A DNA stretch of 63,061 nt from an uncultured Clostridia bacterium (GTDB lineage: Bacteria > Bacillota > Clostridia > TANB77 > CAG-508). Shown here one piece after another: positions 3-37,302 of this stretch (its first letter is position 1; each line of letters begins with the position of its first letter). A program made the translations under genes and the position numbers. The DNA is taken from positions 1-63,061 of the forward strand of contig CALXQP010000009.1 of NCBI GenBank assembly GCA_944390695.1. The letters run 5' to 3'. The notes below the pieces were generated by a model that saw nothing but the letters and a program-made list of their open reading frames with translations, made no database searches and had not been told where the DNA came from.

Positions 3-197
3 GTATTAAAAGAAGCTGGAGATCAAAAAATAAAAGTTATCACAGCTGTTAAAAATGCATTAGGATTAGGATTAAAAGAAGCTAAAGATTTAGTTGATGG
101 AGCACCAAAAACATTAAAAGAAAATGTAGCTAAAGCTGAAGCTGAAGAATTAAAAGCTAAACTTGAAGAAGTTGGAGCTGTTATTGAATTACAATAA
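3..197 (+). CDS. rplL: 50S ribosomal protein L7/L12, C-terminal fragment (gene begins upstream of the window)
   Basis: Hand translation gives [64 protein letters not shown], the conserved L7/L12 C-terminal domain. Stop TAA is at 195-197. Confidence 0.85.
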
Positions 198-28706: not shown

Positions 28707-30095
28707 ATGCAAGTAAAAAAAATATTAGAAATAACAAAAGGCATATTAGTAACAGGTGATGAAAATTTAGAATGTGAAAATTTTTCAAAAGATACAAGAA
28801 CTATACAAAAAGGGGATATTTACATAGGGATTAAAGGAGAAAAGTTTGATGGAAGTCTATTTTGGAAACAAGCATTAGATAATGGAGCAAGTGCAGTCAT
28901 AATTGAAAATATAAAAATAACAAATGAGGAAAAGGAAAAATATTCAAATAAAACAATTATAGAAGTAAAAGATACTTTAGGGGCTTTATATGAAATTGCA
29001 AAATATAAAAGGAGCTTATATGATATTCCTGTTATTGCAATTACAGGAAGTGTAGGCAAAACAAGTACAAAAGATATAATTGCAAGTGTTGTTAGTACAA
29101 AATATAAGACTTTAAAAACAGAAGGCAATAATAATAATAATATTGGCTTGCCATTAACAATTTTAAAATTAAAAGATCATGAAGCACTTGTAATAGAAAT
29201 GGGAATGAACCATTTTGGAGAAATAAGTTTATTAACAAATATAGCAAGACCAACATTAGCTGTAATAACCAATATAGGAACATCACATATTGGAAATTTA
29301 GGTTCAAGAGAAAATATCTTAAAGGCAAAATTAGAAATATTAGAAGGAATGAAGGTTCCAAAAATAATTATAAATAATGATAATGATTTATTACATAATT
29401 GGTATGAAGAAAACAAGAAAAATATAGAGATACATACATGTGGTATAAAAAATGAAAGTGAATTAATGGCAAAACAAATACAGTTGAATGAAGAAAATAG
29501 TGAATTTATAGCTGTATCTGCTTCAGATAAAATTATGCTTAGAGTACCTGTTGGTGGAGAACATTTTGTGTATAATTCATTATGTGCAACAGAAGTTGGA
29601 AAATTATTAGGGCTTTCAAATGAACAAATAGTAGATGGAATTTCTAAATTTGAATTATCTAAAAAAAGGATGGATATTATAAAATTGGATAATGGAGCTA
29701 TTATGATAAATGATAGTTATAATGCAAGTTATGAGTCTATGAAAGCAAGTTTAGAATTTTTAAAAACTCATACAGGGAAAAGGAAAATTGCTGTATTAGG
29801 AGATATGCTAGAACTAGGAGAATATTCGAAAGAGCTACATGCGAAAGTGGGAGAAGAAGTTTCTAAAAGAGATATTGATATATTAATTTGCACAGGTGAG
29901 AATTCAAAATATATTATAAAAGAAGCGGAAAAAAATGAAAAAATAAAAATATTTTTTATGAACAGTAATGAACAAATTGTGGAAAAACTATCTCAAGAAT
30001 TAAAAGATGGAGATATTGTTTTAGTAAAAGCATCAAATGGAATGAAATTTTACGAAATTTGTAAAAAAACTATAGATTTTTTTGCTAAAAGTTGA
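28707..30095 (+). CDS. murF: UDP-N-acetylmuramoyl-tripeptide--D-alanyl-D-alanine ligase
   Basis: 462 aa with the Mur ligase P-loop ITGSVGKTSTKD and the C-terminal DSYNAS motif. Confidence 0.9.
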   Translation: MQVKKILEITKGILVTGDENLECENFSKDTRTIQKGDIYIGIKGEKFDGSLFWKQALDNGASAVIIENIKITNEEKEKYSNKTIIEVKDTLGALYEIAKYKRSLYDIPVIAITGSVGKTSTKDIIASVVSTKYKTLKTEGNNNNNIGLPLTILKLKDHEALVIEMGMNHFGEISLLTNIARPTLAVITNIGTSHIGNLGSRENILKAKLEILEGMKVPKIIINNDNDLLHNWYEENKKNIEIHTCGIKNESELMAKQIQLNEENSEFIAVSASDKIMLRVPVGGEHFVYNSLCATEVGKLLGLSNEQIVDGISKFELSKKRMDIIKLDNGAIMINDSYNASYESMKASLEFLKTHTGKRKIAVLGDMLELGEYSKELHAKVGEEVSKRDIDILICTGENSKYIIKEAEKNEKIKIFFMNSNEQIVEKLSQELKDGDIVLVKASNGMKFYEICKKTIDFFAKS

Positions 30096-30132
30096 TATAA
30101 TGCTAGTACCAATATAAATTGGAGGATGTCAG

Positions 30133-31021
30133 ATGAGAATTAAAGATTATTATAAGATACTAGAATTAGAAGATACTAGAGTAACTACAGAACAAATAAA
30201 ATCAGCATATAGGAAACAAGCAAAAAAATATCACCCAGATGTAAATGTAGGAAATAAATTAGCAGAAGAAAGAATAAAAGATGTTAATGAAGCATATAGA
30301 ATATTGTCAAATCCAGCATCAAAGAGAAGATATGATAGAACTTGGAATTATAATATAGGAAATAAACAAAAAAAAGCAAAACAAAAAACAACAGGAGAAA
30401 TTGCAGGAGAAATATTTGGAATGTTTTTTGGGAATAGTGAATTAAAAGAAGAAATTGCACAAAGTAAAATTCCTCCTGTAAAACGGTGAAGATATAGAAA
30501 CAGAAATTAATATAACAATAGAAGATGGATTTTATGGTGCTGAGAAAAAGCTAGTATTAAATAATTTGGAAGGAAAAGCAAAAACTTTAGATATAAAAAT
30601 ACCAGAAGGAATAAAAAATGGAGAAAAAATTCGTATAATAGGTCAAGGAAAAATGGGCAAACATGGAGGAAAAAATGGTGATTTATATATAAAGATAAAT
30701 ATTCAAGATGGCAAAAAATACAGATTAAATGGAAATGATTTATATACTACAATATTAATCACACCTTGGGAAGCTGCTTTAGGTGCTAAAGCAAAAGTAA
30801 ATTCTATAGATGATACTAAAACACAAATATATATACCAAGTGGAATACAATCAGGAGAAATAATTGAAATACCACAAAAAGGATACAAATCTAAAAATGG
30901 TGAAAGAGGTAATTTAATTGCTCAAATAAAAATTGTAGTTCCAGAAAAATTAACAAAAGAAGAAACAGAAATTTTTAAAAGATTAAAAGAAATATCAAAA
31001 TTTAATCCAAGAAGAGTTTAA
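30133..31021 (+). pseudogene. CbpA/DnaJ-class J-domain co-chaperone interrupted by a single-base frameshift at ~30484
   Basis: Frame 1 (30133-30489) carries a J domain (DYYKILE..KKYHPD) and a G/F region ending ..PPVKR*. From 30485, the frame shifted by +1 continues GEDIETEINITIEDGFYGAEKK.. and the DnaJ C-terminal domains to 31021. Confidence 0.8.
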
Positions 31022-31044
31022 ATGTTTAAAAAATCATATTAGTG

Positions 31045-31073
31045 TTGACAAAACTTGTAAAATAAGGTATAAT
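31045..31073 (+). promoter_or_regulatory. Consensus sigma-A promoter of the T4CP operon
   Basis: TTGACA (31045-31050), a 17-nt spacer, then TATAAT (31068-31073). Confidence 0.7.
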
Positions 31074-31141
31074 AAATAATGTGAGTTCGTAAACATAAGA
31101 TAAACTATGGATTAAATCATAGGAATGAGGTGCAAAATAAA

Positions 31142-31669
31142 ATGGATATGTTACAAGGAAAACATTTTAGTATAACAGATCCAAAAGGAGTTAACACAGT
31201 AATTTATCAAATAAATAAAACAAAAAAGGAATTTCAAAAAGAATATCCTAAATATACTGTTGAAAGATTAGATTTTACTGAAGAGATAAGAGGAGAATCT
31301 AGAAGAAAGACCTTTTATGTTGATGAGCCACAACCAAATGGAAATCAATTAGTAATACTATCATTTGGTAAAGAGAGTGTAGTAATCAATTCAGGAATAC
31401 TAATTGATGATGAAGTAAGGATATCAAAAACGCCGACACCTTTTAAGTTTAATACATTATATTCAGAAGAAGAACAGGAATTTAAAGAATTTAACTATAC
31501 ACCTAATATGAAAAGAGATATATGTGTTATAGATCCTGAAACTACAGAAGAATTAAGACCTAGACTTTATTTTGATGAAAAAGAAAATAAAGTAAAGGGT
31601 AGATGTAAATTAAAACCATATAAATCTTATTTCGCTTTTGAAGTGAGAGAAGATAAGGGAAATAGTTAA
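31142..31669 (+). CDS. Hypothetical protein, first gene of the T4CP operon
   Basis: ORF of ~175 aa (track start is GTG 31130; ATG 31142 follows AGGAATGAGG). Soluble, charged, with no recognisable motif. Confidence 0.6.
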   Translation: MDMLQGKHFSITDPKGVNTVIYQINKTKKEFQKEYPKYTVERLDFTEEIRGESRRKTFYVDEPQPNGNQLVILSFGKESVVINSGILIDDEVRISKTPTPFKFNTLYSEEEQEFKEFNYTPNMKRDICVIDPETTEELRPRLYFDEKENKVKGRCKLKPYKSYFAFEVREDKGNS

Positions 31670-31684
31670 GGAGGCAAATTTACT

Positions 31685-31936
31685 ATGGGGAGTCACACAG
31701 TAAATGAAGAGGAGAAGAAATATACTCCATCAGGAGAAGAAAATCGAGTAATAATAGCAGGAATGCAAATAATTCAAAAGCAAATTAATAAAGAATGGGA
31801 GTTAGAATCAAAAGGAAAATTACTAAGAGAAGTAAATCCAAAAGACTATATCAAAATAAAAGCTTATGATAATAAAGATATAACAAAACCTAAAGAGCCA
31901 ATCAAAGCAAATAAAAGTGAAACAAGAGGAGAATAA
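31685..31936 (+). CDS. Hypothetical small charged protein, second gene of the T4CP operon
   Basis: 83 aa. A GGAGG RBS lies 8 nt upstream and the gene starts 15 nt after the previous stop. No recognisable motif. Confidence 0.6.
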   Translation: MGSHTVNEEEKKYTPSGEENRVIIAGMQIIQKQINKEWELESKGKLLREVNPKDYIKIKAYDNKDITKPKEPIKANKSETRGE

Positions 31937-31959
31937 ACTAAAGAGAAGGTGATTTATAT

Positions 31960-34020
31960 ATGAATTACAAGGTTGAAGGTGCAATAAGAAGAAATAAGAA
32001 ATATTTTATAATTTTTGGGATACTATGGTTATTTGTAGCCATAGTCTTAATTGTTCCTATAACAACAGGTATTAATGTAACTTCAGTAGAAAAAGATATG
32101 GGAGCTGGAATCGCTGAATTTGTAAATACAATGAAAAATCCGTTTGCAGGTATAGGAGAAATAATTTCTAATAATTTGGGAGGATTATATTTTAAAAATT
32201 TGGGGATCTTCTCAATAATTTTTGCAATATTTTTCATAGTAGGAGTTGCAAGATCAGCACCTAAAAATGAATATACAGATTTTGAACATGGTTCAAGTGA
32301 TTGGAGTAAAAATGGAGAACAATATACTATCTTAAGTAATAAAAAAGGAATTATATTAGCAGAAGATAATTATTTGCCAGTAGATAAAAGAGGAAATGTC
32401 AATGTATTGGTAGTCGGAGGTTCTGGTTCTGGTAAATCAGCATCATATTCAATACCAAATGCATTTCAATTATTAGGTTCATATGTATTTACAGATCCAA
32501 AAGGTGAATTATATGATAGAACAGCTGGTTATTTAAAACAAAATGGATATGAAATAAAAGTATTAAATCTTGTAAAACCACAAAATAGTGATGGATATAA
32601 TCCTTTAATGCATATTTCATCAGAAATAGATGTAGATGTAATTGCAAATACAATAGTAAAAGGGCAAAAAACAGGAGATGGAGGTTCAGACCCATTCTGG
32701 GATGATTCTGCAGAAATGTTGTTAAAAGCATTAATATATTATCTAATGGCAACAAGACCAGAAGAAGAACAAAATTTAGCAAGTTGTGCAGAATTAGTAA
32801 GAGCAGCGAATTCTAATGGAGGAAGCAATTTACTTACAGAATTAATTAGTAAATTACCATATGATCATCCAGCAAGAATGAATTATAAATCAATCGAAAT
32901 TGCTCCAGAAAAAACATATAGTTCAATATTAAGTACATTACAATCAAAATTAGGAAAATTCGACTCAAAAGAAATTGCAGAATTAACATCAACAGATACA
33001 ATAAATTTTGAAGAAATCGGAAATAAAAAAACAGCAGTATATGTAATATCATCAGATACACATACAGCATATGACTTTTTACTTACTATATTTTTCTCTC
33101 AAATGATACAACAATTATATAATTATGCAGATGATAATGGAGGAGCCCTAAAAGTCCCTACATATTTTATACTGGATGAGTTTGCTAATATAGGAAGAAT
33201 CCCAGATTTTGATAAAAAGATTTCAACATCAAGAAGTAGAAAAATTTCATTTAGTGTAATTTTACAAAACTTAGACCAATTAGAAGCAATATATGAAAAA
33301 TCTTATGAGACTATAATAGGTAACTGTGATACACATTTATTTTTAGGAAGTAACTCATATAAAACTGTTGAGTATTTTTCAAAAGCTTTAGGTGAGAAAA
33401 CAATAGAAAGAGATAGTATTTCTGTAAATAAAGATAGACAATATTTTAGAACAGGTCAAAGTATATCTGATCAAGTAATGGCAAGAGCTTTAATGACTCC
33501 AGATGAACTTAGAAGATTAGATAATGATTTATGTATAATTTTTGAAAAAGGTATAAAACCTGTAAAAGCAAATAAATTCTATTATTTTAAACATAAAAAT
33601 ATGGCTGGAACTTTAAAAAGAGCTGAAATAAGTCATAATGACATTGGTGAAATAGAAAGAGGAAATTGGAGAAAATTCAATCCATATAATCCATGGACAG
33701 AAGACAAATCAGAAAAAGAAGCTAAAAATTTAAAAGTAGAATCTTTAGATGATTTATTTGAGGATGAACCTAAAAAAGAAGATATAAATAGCAAGTCTTC
33801 TAATAAAGAACCCGCAAATGTTATAGCCACTTCATCTAAAACTTCAAATGCAGGACAATCAATAGATGATTTCTTTGGAGATACATCAAAAAATAATGAT
33901 ATTTCTAAAAAAGAAAATGATATATCAGCTATTTCGCAAGATTCAGAAGATTCATATGATTTGCAAAAAGAGCTTGAAGCTAAATTTGATGAATTATTTG
34001 GACCTTTAGATGATAACTAA
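31960..34020 (+). CDS. Type IV secretion coupling protein-like ATPase (VirD4/TraG/TraD family), membrane-anchored
   Basis: 686 aa. Two N-terminal TM segments, Walker A VVGGSGSGKSAS, FTDPKGELY, PFWDDSAEMLLKAL, Walker B YFILDEFANIG and ILQNLDQLEAIY are present, plus an acidic/Ser-rich C-terminal tail. Confidence 0.85.
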   Translation: MNYKVEGAIRRNKKYFIIFGILWLFVAIVLIVPITTGINVTSVEKDMGAGIAEFVNTMKNPFAGIGEIISNNLGGLYFKNLGIFSIIFAIFFIVGVARSAPKNEYTDFEHGSSDWSKNGEQYTILSNKKGIILAEDNYLPVDKRGNVNVLVVGGSGSGKSASYSIPNAFQLLGSYVFTDPKGELYDRTAGYLKQNGYEIKVLNLVKPQNSDGYNPLMHISSEIDVDVIANTIVKGQKTGDGGSDPFWDDSAEMLLKALIYYLMATRPEEEQNLASCAELVRAANSNGGSNLLTELISKLPYDHPARMNYKSIEIAPEKTYSSILSTLQSKLGKFDSKEIAELTSTDTINFEEIGNKKTAVYVISSDTHTAYDFLLTIFFSQMIQQLYNYADDNGGALKVPTYFILDEFANIGRIPDFDKKISTSRSRKISFSVILQNLDQLEAIYEKSYETIIGNCDTHLFLGSNSYKTVEYFSKALGEKTIERDSISVNKDRQYFRTGQSISDQVMARALMTPDELRRLDNDLCIIFEKGIKPVKANKFYYFKHKNMAGTLKRAEISHNDIGEIERGNWRKFNPYNPWTEDKSEKEAKNLKVESLDDLFEDEPKKEDINSKSSNKEPANVIATSSKTSNAGQSIDDFFGDTSKNNDISKKENDISAISQDSEDSYDLQKELEAKFDELFGPLDDN

Positions 34021-34030
34021 AATATAAAAA

Positions 34031-34061
34031 AATATCACAATTAATTTTGTGGTATTTTTTT
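34031..34061 (+). terminator. Rho-independent terminator after the T4CP-like gene
   Basis: ATATCACAA-TTAATT-TTGTGGTAT followed by TTTTTTT. Confidence 0.7.
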
Positions 34062-34135
34062 GCGTAAAAAATTCAAAAACACGAAAAAACTTTCGCTAAA
34101 TGCTTGAAAAAAATAATAAAATATTATAAAATGGC

Positions 34136-34233
34136 AAAAAGAGAACCGGCACCAAATTGACAAAATGGCGCAAACCAGCTAGACAGGCTGGCCAGGAGGA
34201 AAAAGACAAAAAGAGAACCGGCACCAAATTAAC
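34136..34233 (-). repeat. Family-A composite repeat unit in the leader of the sbcD-like gene
   Basis: AAAAAGAGAACCGGCACCAAATTGAC is at 34136-34161 and AAAAAGAGAACCGGCACCAAATTAAC at 34208-34233. Confidence 0.9.
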
Positions 34234-34253
34234 AGAAAGGAATGTTAATAGAA

Positions 34254-35324
34254 ATGAAATTTGTACATATAGCAGATATGCATTTTGATTCTCCTTTGAC
34301 GAATTTATCAGACAAAGGAAATTTGGGAGAACAAAGAAGAATAGAACAGAGAAGAGTATTCAAAAAAGTAATAGAATATATAAAAGAAAATAAAACAGAA
34401 TTATTGTTTATATCAGGAGATTTATATGAACATAAATATATAAGAAAATCAACAATAGAATATATAAATAATTTATTTAAAGAAATAAAAGATACAAAAA
34501 TATTTATATCTCCAGGAAATCATGATCCATTTTTAAAGAAATCATATTATAATGATTTCAATTGGAGTGAAAATGTACATATATTTGGACCACAAATAGA
34601 AAGAGTTGAATTAGAAGATATAGATATATATGGATTTGGATTTGATGATTTTTATTGTACACAGTCAAATATAGAAAATGTTGAAATTAAAAATCCTGAG
34701 AAAATTAATGTTTTAATAATACATGGAACATTAGATGGAGCAAATTTAGAAGAAAGGCAATATAATTCAATGAATTCGAAAATGCTTAAAGATAAAGGAT
34801 TTGATTATATTGCATTAGGTCATATTCATAAAAATAATTTTGAAAAAAATGCAAATATTATTTATCCAGGTTCAACAATATCATTAGGTTTTGATGAATT
34901 AGGAAATCATGGAATGATAGTTGGGGAAATTAATAAAAATTCTAATAAAATAGAATTTATAAAATTAGATGAAACTGAGTTTGTTGAATTTGAAATAGAT
35001 TGTACAGAAATAAATTCAGTTGAAGATTTAATAGAAAAAATAAATGAAATAAATATGGAAGAAAATAAATTATATAAAATAATATTATTAGGTAAAAGAA
35101 ATTTTGAAATAAATATATATGATTTATATAAATATGAATTAAATGATAGAATAATTAAAATAAAAAATAAAACAAAACCAAATTATGATATTGAAAAAAT
35201 TGCAAAAGAAAATACATTAAGAGGATTATTTACAAAAGAAATTTTAGATGAAATTAAAAAGAAAAATTATGATGAAGAGATAATTGAAAAAGCTTTAGAA
35301 ATAGGAATGGAAGTATTAGAATAA
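34254..35324 (+). CDS. DNA repair exonuclease, SbcD/Mre11-family metallophosphoesterase (YhaO-like)
   Basis: Has the MKFVHIADMHFD start and the GDLYE, GNHD, IHG and GHIH phosphoesterase motifs. The track start of 34242 is also possible. Confidence 0.85.
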   Translation: MKFVHIADMHFDSPLTNLSDKGNLGEQRRIEQRRVFKKVIEYIKENKTELLFISGDLYEHKYIRKSTIEYINNLFKEIKDTKIFISPGNHDPFLKKSYYNDFNWSENVHIFGPQIERVELEDIDIYGFGFDDFYCTQSNIENVEIKNPEKINVLIIHGTLDGANLEERQYNSMNSKMLKDKGFDYIALGHIHKNNFEKNANIIYPGSTISLGFDELGNHGMIVGEINKNSNKIEFIKLDETEFVEFEIDCTEINSVEDLIEKINEINMEENKLYKIILLGKRNFEINIYDLYKYELNDRIIKIKNKTKPNYDIEKIAKENTLRGLFTKEILDEIKKKNYDEEIIEKALEIGMEVLE

Positions 35325-35349
35325 GTTTTAAAAATTTGGAGGGATTTAT

Positions 35350-37302
35350 TTGAAAATAAATAAAATAAAAATAAATTCATATGGAAAATTAAAAAATAAA
35401 GAAATAAATTTAGAAAATAATATGAATATCATTTATGGAAAAAATGAAAGTGGAAAATCAACATTATTAAAATTTATTGTAAATATTTTTTTCGGTGCAT
35501 CAAGAAATAAAAAAGGTAGAGATATTTCAGATTTTGAAAAATATAAACCATGGGATGCAGAAGAATATTCTGGAAAATTAACATATGAATTAGATGATAA
35601 AAATAAGTATGAGATTTTTAGAGAATTTAATAAAAAAAATCCAAAAATATTTAATGAAAAGGGAGAAGAGATTTCAAAAGAATTTAATATTGATAAAAAT
35701 AAAGGTAATGAATTCTTTTTTGAGCAGACTCAGATTAGCGAAGATATGTTTTTAGCAACATCTGTTTCTATGCAACAAGAAGTGAAAATTGCTAAAGATG
35801 CTCAAAATATTTTAATCCAAAAAATCTCTAATCTCTTAGGGACAGGAGAAGATAGTGTTTCATACAAAAAGGCATTAGAAAAATTATATAAAATACAATT
35901 GGAAAAAGTAGGAACTGATAGAAGTAGAGAAAAGCCAATAAATATTATAAGAAAAAATATAGAAATAAATGAGCAAAAAATTAATGAATTAAAAAAATAT
36001 GAAAATATTCAATATGATATTGAAGAACAAAAAAAAGAAATAAAAAATGAATTAGAAAAAAATAAAATAAAAAATGAATTATTAAAAGAAATAAAAATAA
36101 TTAAAGAAAAAAATAATTTAGAAAATGAGAAAATAAAAATAAAAGAAAAAATTGTAGAAGAAAATAAAAATAAAATAAATGAATTAAAAAATAAAATAGA
36201 AAAAATAAATAATAAATATTTGGAAGAAAAAAATAATGAAAAATATTCAGAAAATAATTATGAAAAAAATAAATTAAATAAAAAATTAAATTTATTTTTT
36301 ATTATTTTAATTTTATTAAATATTTTATGGATTATTTTTATTCCAAAAATAAATAATAATTTTATTTTTAAATATATTTTTCTCCTTACGGTACCAACGT
36401 TTTTAATTTTTTCTATATTTTTGAAAAATAAATTAAAAAATAAAATAAAAATATTAGAAGAAAATAAAAATAATTATTTAGAAAAAATAAATATAGAAAA
36501 AAATAATTTAGAAAAAGAGAATAAAATAATAGAAAAAAATTCAGAGGAAATATTAGAAGAAATAAATAAAATAAAAATAGAAAATAATTTAAAAAATAAT
36601 TTAGAAAAAGAAAAAATAATAAATAAATATTTAAATAAAATAAAAATAGAAGAAATAAATTATTTATTTAATTTAGAGAAAATAAATGAAGAAATAAATT
36701 ATTATGAAAATAAAATTTATAATTTAAATTTAGAAATAAATAAATTAGAAATAAAAAAAGAAAATATTGAACCAGAATTAGAAAATTTGTCAAATTTAGA
36801 AGAAGAATTATATGCTGCAAAAGAAGAATATGAGGTTTTGAAAAAAACAAAAGAAAGTATAGAATTAGCAAAAAATTTATTAGCTAAATCTTATGAAAAA
36901 ATGAAAAATAGTGTAAGTCCAATTTTTACAGAAAAATTATCAAAAAATATAGAAAAAATTACAAAAGGAAAATATAGTAATATATTTTTCAGTGATGAAC
37001 AAGGATTAACTGTGGAATTAGAAAACGGAAATTATATACCTGCTGAAAGATTAAGTATAGGAACTATTGATCAATTATATTTGTCTTTAAGATTAGCTAT
37101 GTTAGATGAGGTTTCTAAAGAAAAAATTCCAATCATTTTAGATGAATCTTTTGCTTATTATGATGATGAAAGATTGAAAAATATTTTGAGTTTTTTGGTG
37201 AATGAGTTTTCAGATAGACAGATTATTTTATTAACTTGTACAGAAAGGGAAAAGGAAATTCTTGATAGTGAGAGTGTAAATTATAATTACATAGAACTTT
37301 AA
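35350..37302 (+). CDS. SbcC/Rad50-like AAA ATPase (YhaN-like) with an internal TM hairpin
   Basis: Has an N-terminal Walker A GKNESGKST and a long K/N/E/I-rich coiled coil. The C-terminal part carries signature-like LSIGTIDQLYLSLRLA and Walker B IPIILDESF. TTG start follows GGAGGGA. Confidence 0.8.
   Translation: MKINKIKINSYGKLKNKEINLENNMNIIYGKNESGKSTLLKFIVNIFFGASRNKKGRDISDFEKYKPWDAEEYSGKLTYELDDKNKYEIFREFNKKNPKIFNEKGEEISKEFNIDKNKGNEFFFEQTQISEDMFLATSVSMQQEVKIAKDAQNILIQKISNLLGTGEDSVSYKKALEKLYKIQLEKVGTDRSREKPINIIRKNIEINEQKINELKKYENIQYDIEEQKKEIKNELEKNKIKNELLKEIKIIKEKNNLENEKIKIKEKIVEENKNKINELKNKIEKINNKYLEEKNNEKYSENNYEKNKLNKKLNLFFIILILLNILWIIFIPKINNNFIFKYIFLLTVPTFLIFSIFLKNKLKNKIKILEENKNNYLEKINIEKNNLEKENKIIEKNSEEILEEINKIKIENNLKNNLEKEKIINKYLNKIKIEEINYLFNLEKINEEINYYENKIYNLNLEINKLEIKKENIEPELENLSNLEEELYAAKEEYEVLKKTKESIELAKNLLAKSYEKMKNSVSPIFTEKLSKNIEKITKGKYSNIFFSDEQGLTVELENGNYIPAERLSIGTIDQLYLSLRLAMLDEVSKEKIPIILDESFAYYDDERLKNILSFLVNEFSDRQIILLTCTEREKEILDSESVNYNYIEL

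Follow-up and report, generated by a model that had tools for sequence, protein, structure and literature searches.

A domesticated, vertically inherited coupling-protein operon in the chromosomes of gut Clostridia

Coupling proteins are defined by the job that they do in conjugation and type IV secretion, and a coupling-protein gene that stands in a chromosome with no other conjugation gene around it raises the question of what it is kept for. Such a gene lies on a 63,061-nucleotide stretch of DNA from an uncultured Clostridia bacterium (contig CALXQP010000009.1 of assembly GCA_944390695.1; the whole analysed stretch is hereafter called the window). It is the last of three open reading frames (ORFs) on the forward strand, namely ORF1 (31142..31669, 175 amino acids (aa), ATG start), ORF2 (31685..31936, 83 aa) and ORF3 (31960..34020, 686 aa), the last of which codes for a type IV coupling protein (T4CP). 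A first-pass annotation of the window had offered two readings of this trio, either as the last surviving module of a decayed conjugative element or as a domesticated T4CP-like translocase that works with two novel small partners. We show here that the operon is domesticated, vertically inherited and not part of a mobile element, and that it belongs to a lineage of low-GC gut Clostridia with small genomes. To judge from the alignments, the T4CP and its two soluble partners have been co-inherited under strong purifying selection. The best explanation, to which we give a probability of roughly 60%, is a domesticated, non-mobile T4CP operon in which ORF1 and ORF2 form an adaptor docked on the tail of the T4CP, the whole acting as a membrane translocase that probably handles DNA.

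By sequence membership, ORF3 is a VirD4/TraG/TrwB-type coupling protein. Three Pfam models score above their cutoffs, namely T4SS-DNA_transf (3.5e-86, 290.4 bits against a cutoff of 20.1), TrwB_AAD_bind (1.8e-25, 90.1 bits against 20.5) and TraG-D_C (3.7e-37, 127.5 bits against 22); none of these models matches ORF1 or ORF2. The NCBIfam model NF045973 for VirD4-like proteins of the CD1115 family reaches 451.8 bits against a cutoff of 250, and sequence matches in the PDB include Cag5/Cag-beta (8dol, 1e-15) and TrwB (1e9r, 7e-4). The protein begins with a two-helix membrane anchor (hydrophobic segments at about aa 15-36 and at about aa 78-98), continues with a nucleotide-binding domain and its all-alpha domain, and closes with an acidic tail of 131 aa. 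The Walker A motif GGSGSGKS (32416..32439, aa 153-160) and the Walker B region YFILDEFAN (33163..33189, aa 402-410) are invariant in a three-species alignment, and the further T4CP hallmarks FTDPKGELY and ILQNLDQLEAIY are present as well. The anchor and both Walker motifs are intact in the window, and the assignment of ORF3 made at first pass from such hallmarks is borne out by the motifs, by Pfam and by NF045973.

The three genes are driven by one conserved consensus vegetative promoter and a conserved leader, and the elements of the operon lie where the first-pass annotation had placed them. The promoter is a sigma-70/sigma-A-type TTGACA-17 nt-TATAAT sequence (31045..31073, with the -35 box at 31045-31050 and the -10 box at 31068-31073), which is the sole 12/12 consensus match within 30000-34400. 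Of 51 related loci, 45 have an element of the form TTGACA-16..18-TAnAAT upstream of ORF1, and in 44 of these it lies at -92 to -100 relative to the ATG. We took the start of ORF1 as the ATG at 31142, because all homologues begin MDML; the alternative GTG start at 31130 would yield 179 aa. ORF2 and ORF3 follow after gaps of 15 nt and 23 nt and are preceded by the ribosome-binding sites (RBSs) GGAGG and GAAGGTG. Transcription would end at an intrinsic terminator, a hairpin followed by a T-run (34025..34062; dG -14.9 kcal/mol, z -6.19), which none of 200 shuffled sequences matched in folding; a consensus terminator scanner overlooked this hairpin because its stem is AT-rich.

Between promoter and ORF1 lies the conserved 5' leader GTGAGTTCGTAAACATAAGATAAACTATGGATTAAATCATAGGAATGAGGTG (31074..31141), with a small hairpin just before the RBS: CTATG (31105-31109) pairs with CATAG (31118-31122), and the RBS GAGGTG follows at 31127-31132. 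This leader of about 60 nt is almost unchanged in about 30 species among which MurF differs by about 25%, and it occupies the same position in loci L001-L053, from species whose proteins differ by 15-30%. Its hairpin shows one double compensatory change (CTATT/AATAG, in L024) and a loop of variable length. An Rfam search of the locus gave no match for the leader, and RNAalifold predicted no consensus pairs in it. The hairpin is thus a putative one, seen by inspection and with the one compensatory change as the further indication, and the leader might serve as an operator or as an RNA element of regulation. A sporulation-specific role was also considered and set aside. The organism does carry SpoIIE, SpoIIR and YpeB, but a promoter of conserved sigma-A-type consensus speaks against expression in sporulation only.

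The company that a T4CP ordinarily keeps was absent. We searched by tblastn with Firmicutes VirB4, relaxase, MobC, PcfB, DUF3801, PrgI, VirB6-like, CHAP and SLT probes taken from two canonical Firmicutes elements, and obtained no match in the 63-kb window and none in the 1.25 Mb drawn from 85 related loci (±10 kb around each). In neither set is the T4CP linked to a relaxase and to VirB4 or other mating pair formation (Mpf) genes, the setting by which a functional T4CP is recognised. Pfam likewise found no relaxase, VirB4 or integrase among the 30 other large ORFs of the window that were scanned, which are housekeeping or sporulation genes or have no Pfam match; with both searches empty, the absence of conjugation genes from the 63 kb stands as first described. 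The genes recognised in the window include those for RNase R, AdhE, a MurA-like protein, DnaX, YbaB, RecR, YpeB, MurF, the SbcCD-like proteins, PrfA, PcrA, MreBC, PBP2, MinC, SpoIIE, SpoIIR, MecA and RadC, and Pfam confirmed the immediate neighbours of the trio as murF, a broken cbpA-like gene, an sbcCD-like pair and prfA.

The same holds for the surroundings of related trios. All 85 related loci lie in chromosomal housekeeping contexts and never in integrative and conjugative elements (ICEs) or plasmids, and searches of 72,556 plasmids, 50,697 phages and a viral-contig collection yielded no match to ORF1. The nearest relatives of the T4CP on plasmids and ICEs, VirD4 proteins of the CD1115 family (NF045973; for example on C. 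perfringens pSXP-169_2 and in Monoglobus elements), share its domain architecture and are 35-40% identical over the core, with no T4CP of this kind exceeding 40%. These relatives sit in MobC-relaxase-PcfB/DUF3801-VirD4-PrgI-VirB4-hydrolase clusters, whereas the T4CP of the window is chromosomal, syntenic and vertically inherited and stands outside any such cluster. It further differs from them in having about 90 additional tail residues, which end in a motif that they lack, and in its partners, which are ORF1 and ORF2 instead of PcfB or DUF3801. According to Pfam, NCBIfam, PHROG and tblastn, neither ORF1 nor ORF2 is a member of the PcfB, DUF3801, MobC or TraM-like accessory and relaxosome families.

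A scan of one genome per species led to 45 genomes, all of them metagenome-assembled genomes (MAGs) of uncultured Clostridia, recovered from the guts of humans (Hadza, Nepal, Brazil), rabbits and deer and including a closed chromosome of 1.55 Mb (OV788638.1). With about 27% GC and about 1.5 Mb, they would fit the GTDB order TANB77, family CAG-508. The locus is present in all 45 of the species-representative genomes found, and among those whose contigs span the T4CP gene completely it is split in only two, perhaps by MAG error. In 44 of the 45, where contigs reach, the gene order is dnaX-ybaB-recR-...-ypeB-murF-cbpA-ORF1-ORF2-T4CP-(variable)-sbcD-sbcC-prfA-pcrA; the exception, L054, is a member of the distant clades described below. 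Identity to the window is 83-86% for the T4CP and 85-88% for ORF1, as against 75-78% for MurF, 79% for SbcD and 94-96% for RecR and PrfA. Across 38 genomes, pairwise distances are correlated between T4CP and MurF (r = 0.83), T4CP and YpeB (0.87) and MurF and YpeB (0.83), and the mean pairwise distances amount to 0.20 for the T4CP, 0.16 for ORF1, 0.28 for MurF and 0.30 for YpeB.

These data bear directly on the idea that the trio serves to mobilise an integrative mobilisable element (IME), which would bring its own coupling protein and take over a channel from an ICE in the same cell. Some described IMEs do indeed carry genes for both a relaxase and a coupling protein of their own (PMC5704250). 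However, the same flanks are found in 45 species, the divergence of the operon tracks that of its housekeeping neighbours, and no relaxase, integrase, oriT-type accessory gene or insertion polymorphism goes with it; the base composition, which the first-pass annotation had likewise described as that of the surroundings, is flat at about 26-29% GC across the locus. We regard the IME explanation as near refuted.

The pairing of ORF1 and T4CP extends well beyond the 44 syntenic genomes. In distant clades, whose ORF1 is 26-35% identical, the arrangement ORF1-(small ORF)-T4CP is kept in other housekeeping contexts: in L057 and L059 the ORF1-T4CP pair adjoins a cbpA-like gene, in L060 (ORF1 26% identical) the trio follows rpmB and precedes sbcD-sbcC, and in L058 and L067 it follows a VanW/G5 gene and precedes dnaX-ybaB-recR. 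A metagenome scan with a sub-alignment of the distant-clade ORF1 sequences added 23 loci of 25-35% GC, and in these, as in every other related locus, a T4CP gene follows ORF1 wherever the contig is long enough. Among 15 clade representatives ORF1 and the T4CP are the only genes that are universally co-located, a pattern that points to a pair much older than the main clade. As a separate observation, the gene upstream of ORF1 in L054 (480-1601) encodes a protein of 373 aa whose N-terminus has a hydrophobic segment reminiscent of the leader of a prepilin or pseudopilin.

With this in hand the first of the two original readings can be judged. If the trio were all that is left intact of a decayed conjugative element and served no function today, this would account for a lone conjugation-family gene without partners, next to a cbpA-like gene that is split in the window. 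Against it, purifying selection on the operon is stronger than on MurF, YpeB or SbcCD (38 genomes), the promoter matches the consensus, the leader is conserved, and a C-terminal motif of 16 residues in the T4CP is essentially invariant. Moreover, the pair persists down to 26% ORF1 identity and in genomes of about 1.5 Mb. Synteny, co-divergence and constraint, together with the conserved promoter and leader, thus reject the decaying element, which we take to be effectively refuted, along with the IME. The other original reading, a domesticated T4CP with two novel small partners, is the one that the data support.

What, then, are these partners? ORF1 has 3813 homologues in a set of 5.8 billion proteins, mostly from gut metagenomes, and an exhaustive search of representatives gave 336 clusters at 50% identity. 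In keeping with the first-pass annotation, which could place neither small protein, it falls into no Pfam, NCBIfam, PADLOC or PHROG family. Its AlphaFold2 model (predicted local distance difference test (pLDDT) 87.3, predicted template modelling score (pTM) 0.83, 14 strands) confidently predicts a soluble all-beta protein with two tandem beta-sandwich domains, for which Foldseek returned only generic Ig-like chains at a TM-score of about 0.25 from the PDB and BFVD and no specific structural relative. ORF1 is the putative founding member of an undescribed domain family.

ORF2 is basic, hydrophilic, fast-evolving and probably disordered. At E<=1 it matches no Pfam, NCBIfam or PHROG family save Phage_ssDNA_bind, at a sub-threshold 15.7 bits against a cutoff of 27, and a word-based homologue search retrieved ORF2 alone. 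Its counterparts in the related loci were recovered by position: an ORF of 49-118 aa fills the place of ORF2 in nearly all of them, and is 28-37% identical to it where ORF1 is 85-88% identical. The parts that are conserved are the N-terminus MxNxTVNGKKIGxAAG and, in the relatives, a block of the IKAYPGGNPNK type and an acidic-hydrophobic C-terminus. In the clade of L054 and L066 there is no ORF2, and ORF1 bears a C-terminal extension of 45 aa that ends in DG[PL]IV (ADELI in L082), much as ORF2 ends in DELII or DDLII in sister clades. ORF2 thus behaves as a detachable tail of ORF1, and it appears to have been replaced by a C-terminal extension of ORF1 in some lineages.

The link between these partners and the T4CP is suggested by the tail of the latter. 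The acidic C-terminal tail (33625..34017, aa 556-686, pI 4.33) is composed of LDDLFE and IDDFFG repeats, a hypervariable linker and a terminal motif, and in about 45 species the motifs are conserved and the linker is not. The terminal motif, YDLQKELEAKFDELFG in the window (33955..34002, aa 666-681), is our proposed docking site for ORF1 and has the consensus YDLQxELExKFDELFG. The T4CPs of about 45 species end in YDLQKELEAKFDELFG(P/S), preceded by 60 residues that cannot be aligned, and the motif is identical or differs by at most one substitution in all of about 50 main-clade T4CPs. All distant clades have it too, in the form (Y/F/L)D(L/I)QxxLExKFD(E/K)LFG, at 2-10 aa from the C-terminus. It is absent from the CD1115-family T4CPs of ICEs and plasmids, and a search of plasmids with the tail motif gave no match, the 32-aa query being a weak one. 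When the six-frame translation of about 65 loci (about 1 Mb) was searched with the motif as a regular expression, the only other match was one protein with a kinase, an ORF1-like domain and Sel1 repeats. The repeats VESLDDLFEDE and QSIDDFFGD (window 33625-33900, aa 556-650) are kept in most species; their resemblance to the core of the terminal motif (FDELFG) suggests multivalent binding.

A second occurrence of the same motif came from ORF1 homologues of another kind. Among 150 clusters listed of the 336, 39 are long homologues (377-1138 aa) in which the ORF1-like domain is embedded, 18 of them with a TIR domain and two with a Ser/Thr kinase; of the 20 long homologues scanned, all except P0242 carry C-terminal Sel1 repeats. 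A strict pattern finds a PhiDxELxxxFxELFG motif in at least 17 of the 39, upstream of the ORF1-like domain by about 60-85 aa, and by relaxed inspection it is found in most of these TIR-, kinase- or other-Sel1 proteins. In the AlphaFold2 model of one TIR-motif-ORF1 domain-Sel1 protein (m3c03eebb1543) the motif forms a helix with a pLDDT of about 91 between linkers below 50, which is consistent with docking. These paralogues have motif and domain within one chain, and the trio has them in the products of two adjacent genes, which argues that ORF1 binds the tail of the T4CP; a direct fusion of T4CP and ORF1 did not occur among the 39 long homologues. As side observations, these proteins (P0162-P0270) form an undescribed family of the layout [TIR / Ser/Thr kinase / unknown]-PhiDxELxxxFxELFG-ORF1-like domain-Sel1, of which L055 3791-6685 is an example, and one kinase-type member adjoins an FHA-ABC transporter gene.

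The company of TIR and kinase domains invites a reading of the trio as a conflict or defence module, with ORF1 as the sensor and the membrane T4CP as the effector that expels or blocks invading DNA or forms an abortive-infection pore. The long paralogues resemble TIR and kinase effectors (Thoeris ThsB-like, PD-T4-6/Stk2-type) built as effector-motif-ORF1-like domain-Sel1, and the T4CP of the window carries the motif at the equivalent position after its enzymatic domain. Some genomes also have restriction-modification methylases in the variable region beside the T4CP gene. Yet the trio has no TIR, kinase or Sel1 part, and the ORF1-T4CP pair lies at one and the same syntenic position in all genomes found, exceeds MurF in conservation and shows no patchiness, the opposite of typical defence genes; this is a core locus and not an island gene. 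The closest PADLOC models of the long proteins (ThsB/TIR, PD-T4-6 and mad6) match their TIR and kinase parts only. In PADLOC-DB 2.0 neither ORF1 nor ORF2 has a match, and the T4CP has one to mad8 alone (25.4 bits, E 2.3e-6), far below a meaningful threshold and a sign of generic P-loop similarity. On this balance we hold a defence role to be improbable.

The explanation that we favour instead is that of a tail-docked adaptor. The T4CP would assemble at the membrane as T4CPs do, with a long, disordered, acidic tail whose terminal motif YDLQxELExKFDELFG would dock onto ORF1. ORF1, together with ORF2, would then serve as adaptor or regulator, either presenting a substrate to the ATPase or gating its activity. 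Precedents for such loading are known: the C-terminus of TraD of the F plasmid binds TraM. In Legionella, the tail of DotL is reported to recruit the adaptors IcmS and IcmW (PMC3441705), and LvgA belongs to the same complex. In these systems a flexible T4CP tail recruits small soluble adaptors that select or present substrates, and the proposed binding in the window would be of the same kind. ORF1 and ORF2 show no relationship in sequence or fold to TraM or IcmSW, and the locus in the window has no known relaxosome or effector set.

For the substrate, DNA is the most likely choice, although it is a speculative one and the weakest step of the argument. It is favoured because of the ancestry of the T4CP and because the trio recurs, in two deep clades, next to a membrane-anchored SbcC/SbcD-like pair. 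In the window this pair (34242..37302, forward strand) comprises an SbcD-like protein (Pfam Metallophos) and an SbcC/YhaN-like protein (AAA_23/AAA_27), and in the distant L060 clade it likewise lies directly downstream of the trio. A central transmembrane hairpin in the SbcC-like protein is conserved in the window, L001, L010, L038 and L060 (gene coordinates 35350-37302 in the window, 15512-17443 in L001 and 14141-15778 in L060), and the protein is predicted to be a membrane-anchored Rad50-like ATPase.

Several points weigh against the tail-docked, DNA-handling operon that we propose. A terminator follows the T4CP gene, variable cargo often separates it from sbcD, and the adjacency to sbcDC is absent in several clades, so that the adjacency may be inherited synteny and not function. 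ORF1 resembles a protein-binding module and bears no signature of DNA binding, and the occurrence of its paralogues in TIR and kinase proteins points to protein sensing or signalling instead of DNA handling. The binding of ORF1 to the tail is itself inferred from the co-occurrence of motif and domain in one chain and from the pLDDT pattern of a model. In the distant clades of L057 and L060 the T4CPs (L057 2006-3889; L060 10879-12753) have the Walker A sequence GGAGSRKS, with Arg for Gly before the Lys, and keep Walker B and the tail motif; their ATPase activity may be altered or lost, and ATP hydrolysis may not be universally needed. The T4CP gene is split across two frames in 2 of the 45 genomes (L022 10857-12852; L053 10916-12988), with the frame change between the membrane anchor and the nucleotide-binding domain, which may be a MAG assembly error or real pseudogenisation. 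Finally, the search for conjugation genes covered ±10 kb per genome, and a secretion channel may be encoded elsewhere.

This last point is the opening for a different explanation, in which the T4CP receives substrates for a type IV secretion system (T4SS) that is chromosomal, lacks a relaxase (MOBless) and has its channel genes elsewhere, for protein secretion or for DNA release or uptake, with ORF1 and ORF2 as effector adaptors. Whole T4SSs have often been exapted, as is well documented (PMC3548315), and T4CP tails commonly recruit adaptors (PMC3441705). Arrayed against these precedents are the facts that T4CPs of the Firmicutes CD1115 family normally lie inside the Mpf cluster, that this operon has its own promoter and terminator, that no Mpf gene occurs in the 1.25 Mb of flanks of 85 loci, and that the genomes are small (1.55 Mb in the closed chromosome). 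The known MOBless systems, such as H. pylori ComB and the Bartonella and Brucella VirB systems, resemble the operon in that conjugation components have been exapted for host functions, but they are whole secretion systems, often without a T4CP, whereas here the T4CP has no channel gene within the 10 kb searched on either side. We consider a distant channel unlikely.

The tail-docked operon may instead act without a classical mating channel or with another channel. Taken further, and as a possible but distinctly tentative extension, the T4CP would be a self-sufficient, channel-free translocase that is loaded at its tail by ORF1 and ORF2 and serves a core function of this Clostridia lineage, and the motif with the ORF1-like domain would be a general, so far unrecognised coupling module, which in further Firmicutes of the gut also governs TIR and kinase effectors. 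One possibility under this extension is that chromosomal or environmental DNA is moved across the membrane to or from the SbcCD-like nuclease, as in a bacterial counterpart of the archaeal Ced/Ted systems. Ced and Ted DNA import is carried out by domesticated conjugation machinery, and Ted loci carry Rad50 and HerA-like genes (PMC9905601). Like the operon, these systems are chromosomal and vertically inherited derivatives of conjugation, and the Rad50 of Ted parallels the Rad50-like SbcC and SbcD beside the trio in the window. They differ in that they keep VirB4, VirB6 and VirB2 homologues and have no T4CP, whereas the window locus keeps only the T4CP, with no channel or pilin gene found. If channel-free action proved true, it would bear on whether a T4CP hexamer alone can move a substrate across the cytoplasmic membrane.

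The T4CP family itself is known. In the literature that we searched, a stand-alone, vertically inherited (orphan or exapted) T4CP operon is not described, and the same goes for the ORF1 domain family, the tail motif and the link to TIR-Sel1 and kinase-Sel1 proteins. Exaptation has been described for whole secretion systems, and no case limited to the coupling protein came up in that literature. In these small-genome gut bacteria the T4CP is a core gene that is better conserved than MurF, and its homologues abound in assemblies of gut metagenomes. Through the motif and the ORF1-like domain the system is tied to TIR-Sel1 and kinase-Sel1 proteins, a large set so far without annotation, and a new domain family becomes available for annotation; the pairing of tail motif and ORF1 domain is a concrete, testable peptide-domain interaction.

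Two features of the flanking DNA deserve description in their own right. Upstream of the operon, the cbpA-like DnaJ gene (30133..31021, forward strand) is split in the window into ORFs of 118 and 151 aa, on which the Pfam domains DnaJ and DnaJ_C lie separately. It is split also in the identical contig L009 and intact, at 293-295 aa, in relatives, and is either a pseudogene in the window or the product of a sequencing error. In 8 of the 15 clade representatives a cbpA-like gene lies at most 7 kb from the ORF1-T4CP pair, sometimes on the opposite strand. Downstream, the junction between the T4CP gene and sbcD, past the terminator, is a hot spot of variable cargo (in L012, L019-L023, L028, L032, L034, L043, L051, L053 and L005-L008). 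We considered this junction as a defence island, but the mixture of restriction-modification methylases with TetR-MMPL genes, adhesins and SMC does not make a clear one. The cargo comprises an Eco57I-like methylase, an N6_N4 DNA methylase, a TetR-MMPL transporter pair, SMC, an HTH/M78 regulator and Cna_B/MucBP adhesins of 2300-2500 aa. Beyond the junction, the SbcC-like gene of the window includes a stretch of only 12% GC (36001-37000).

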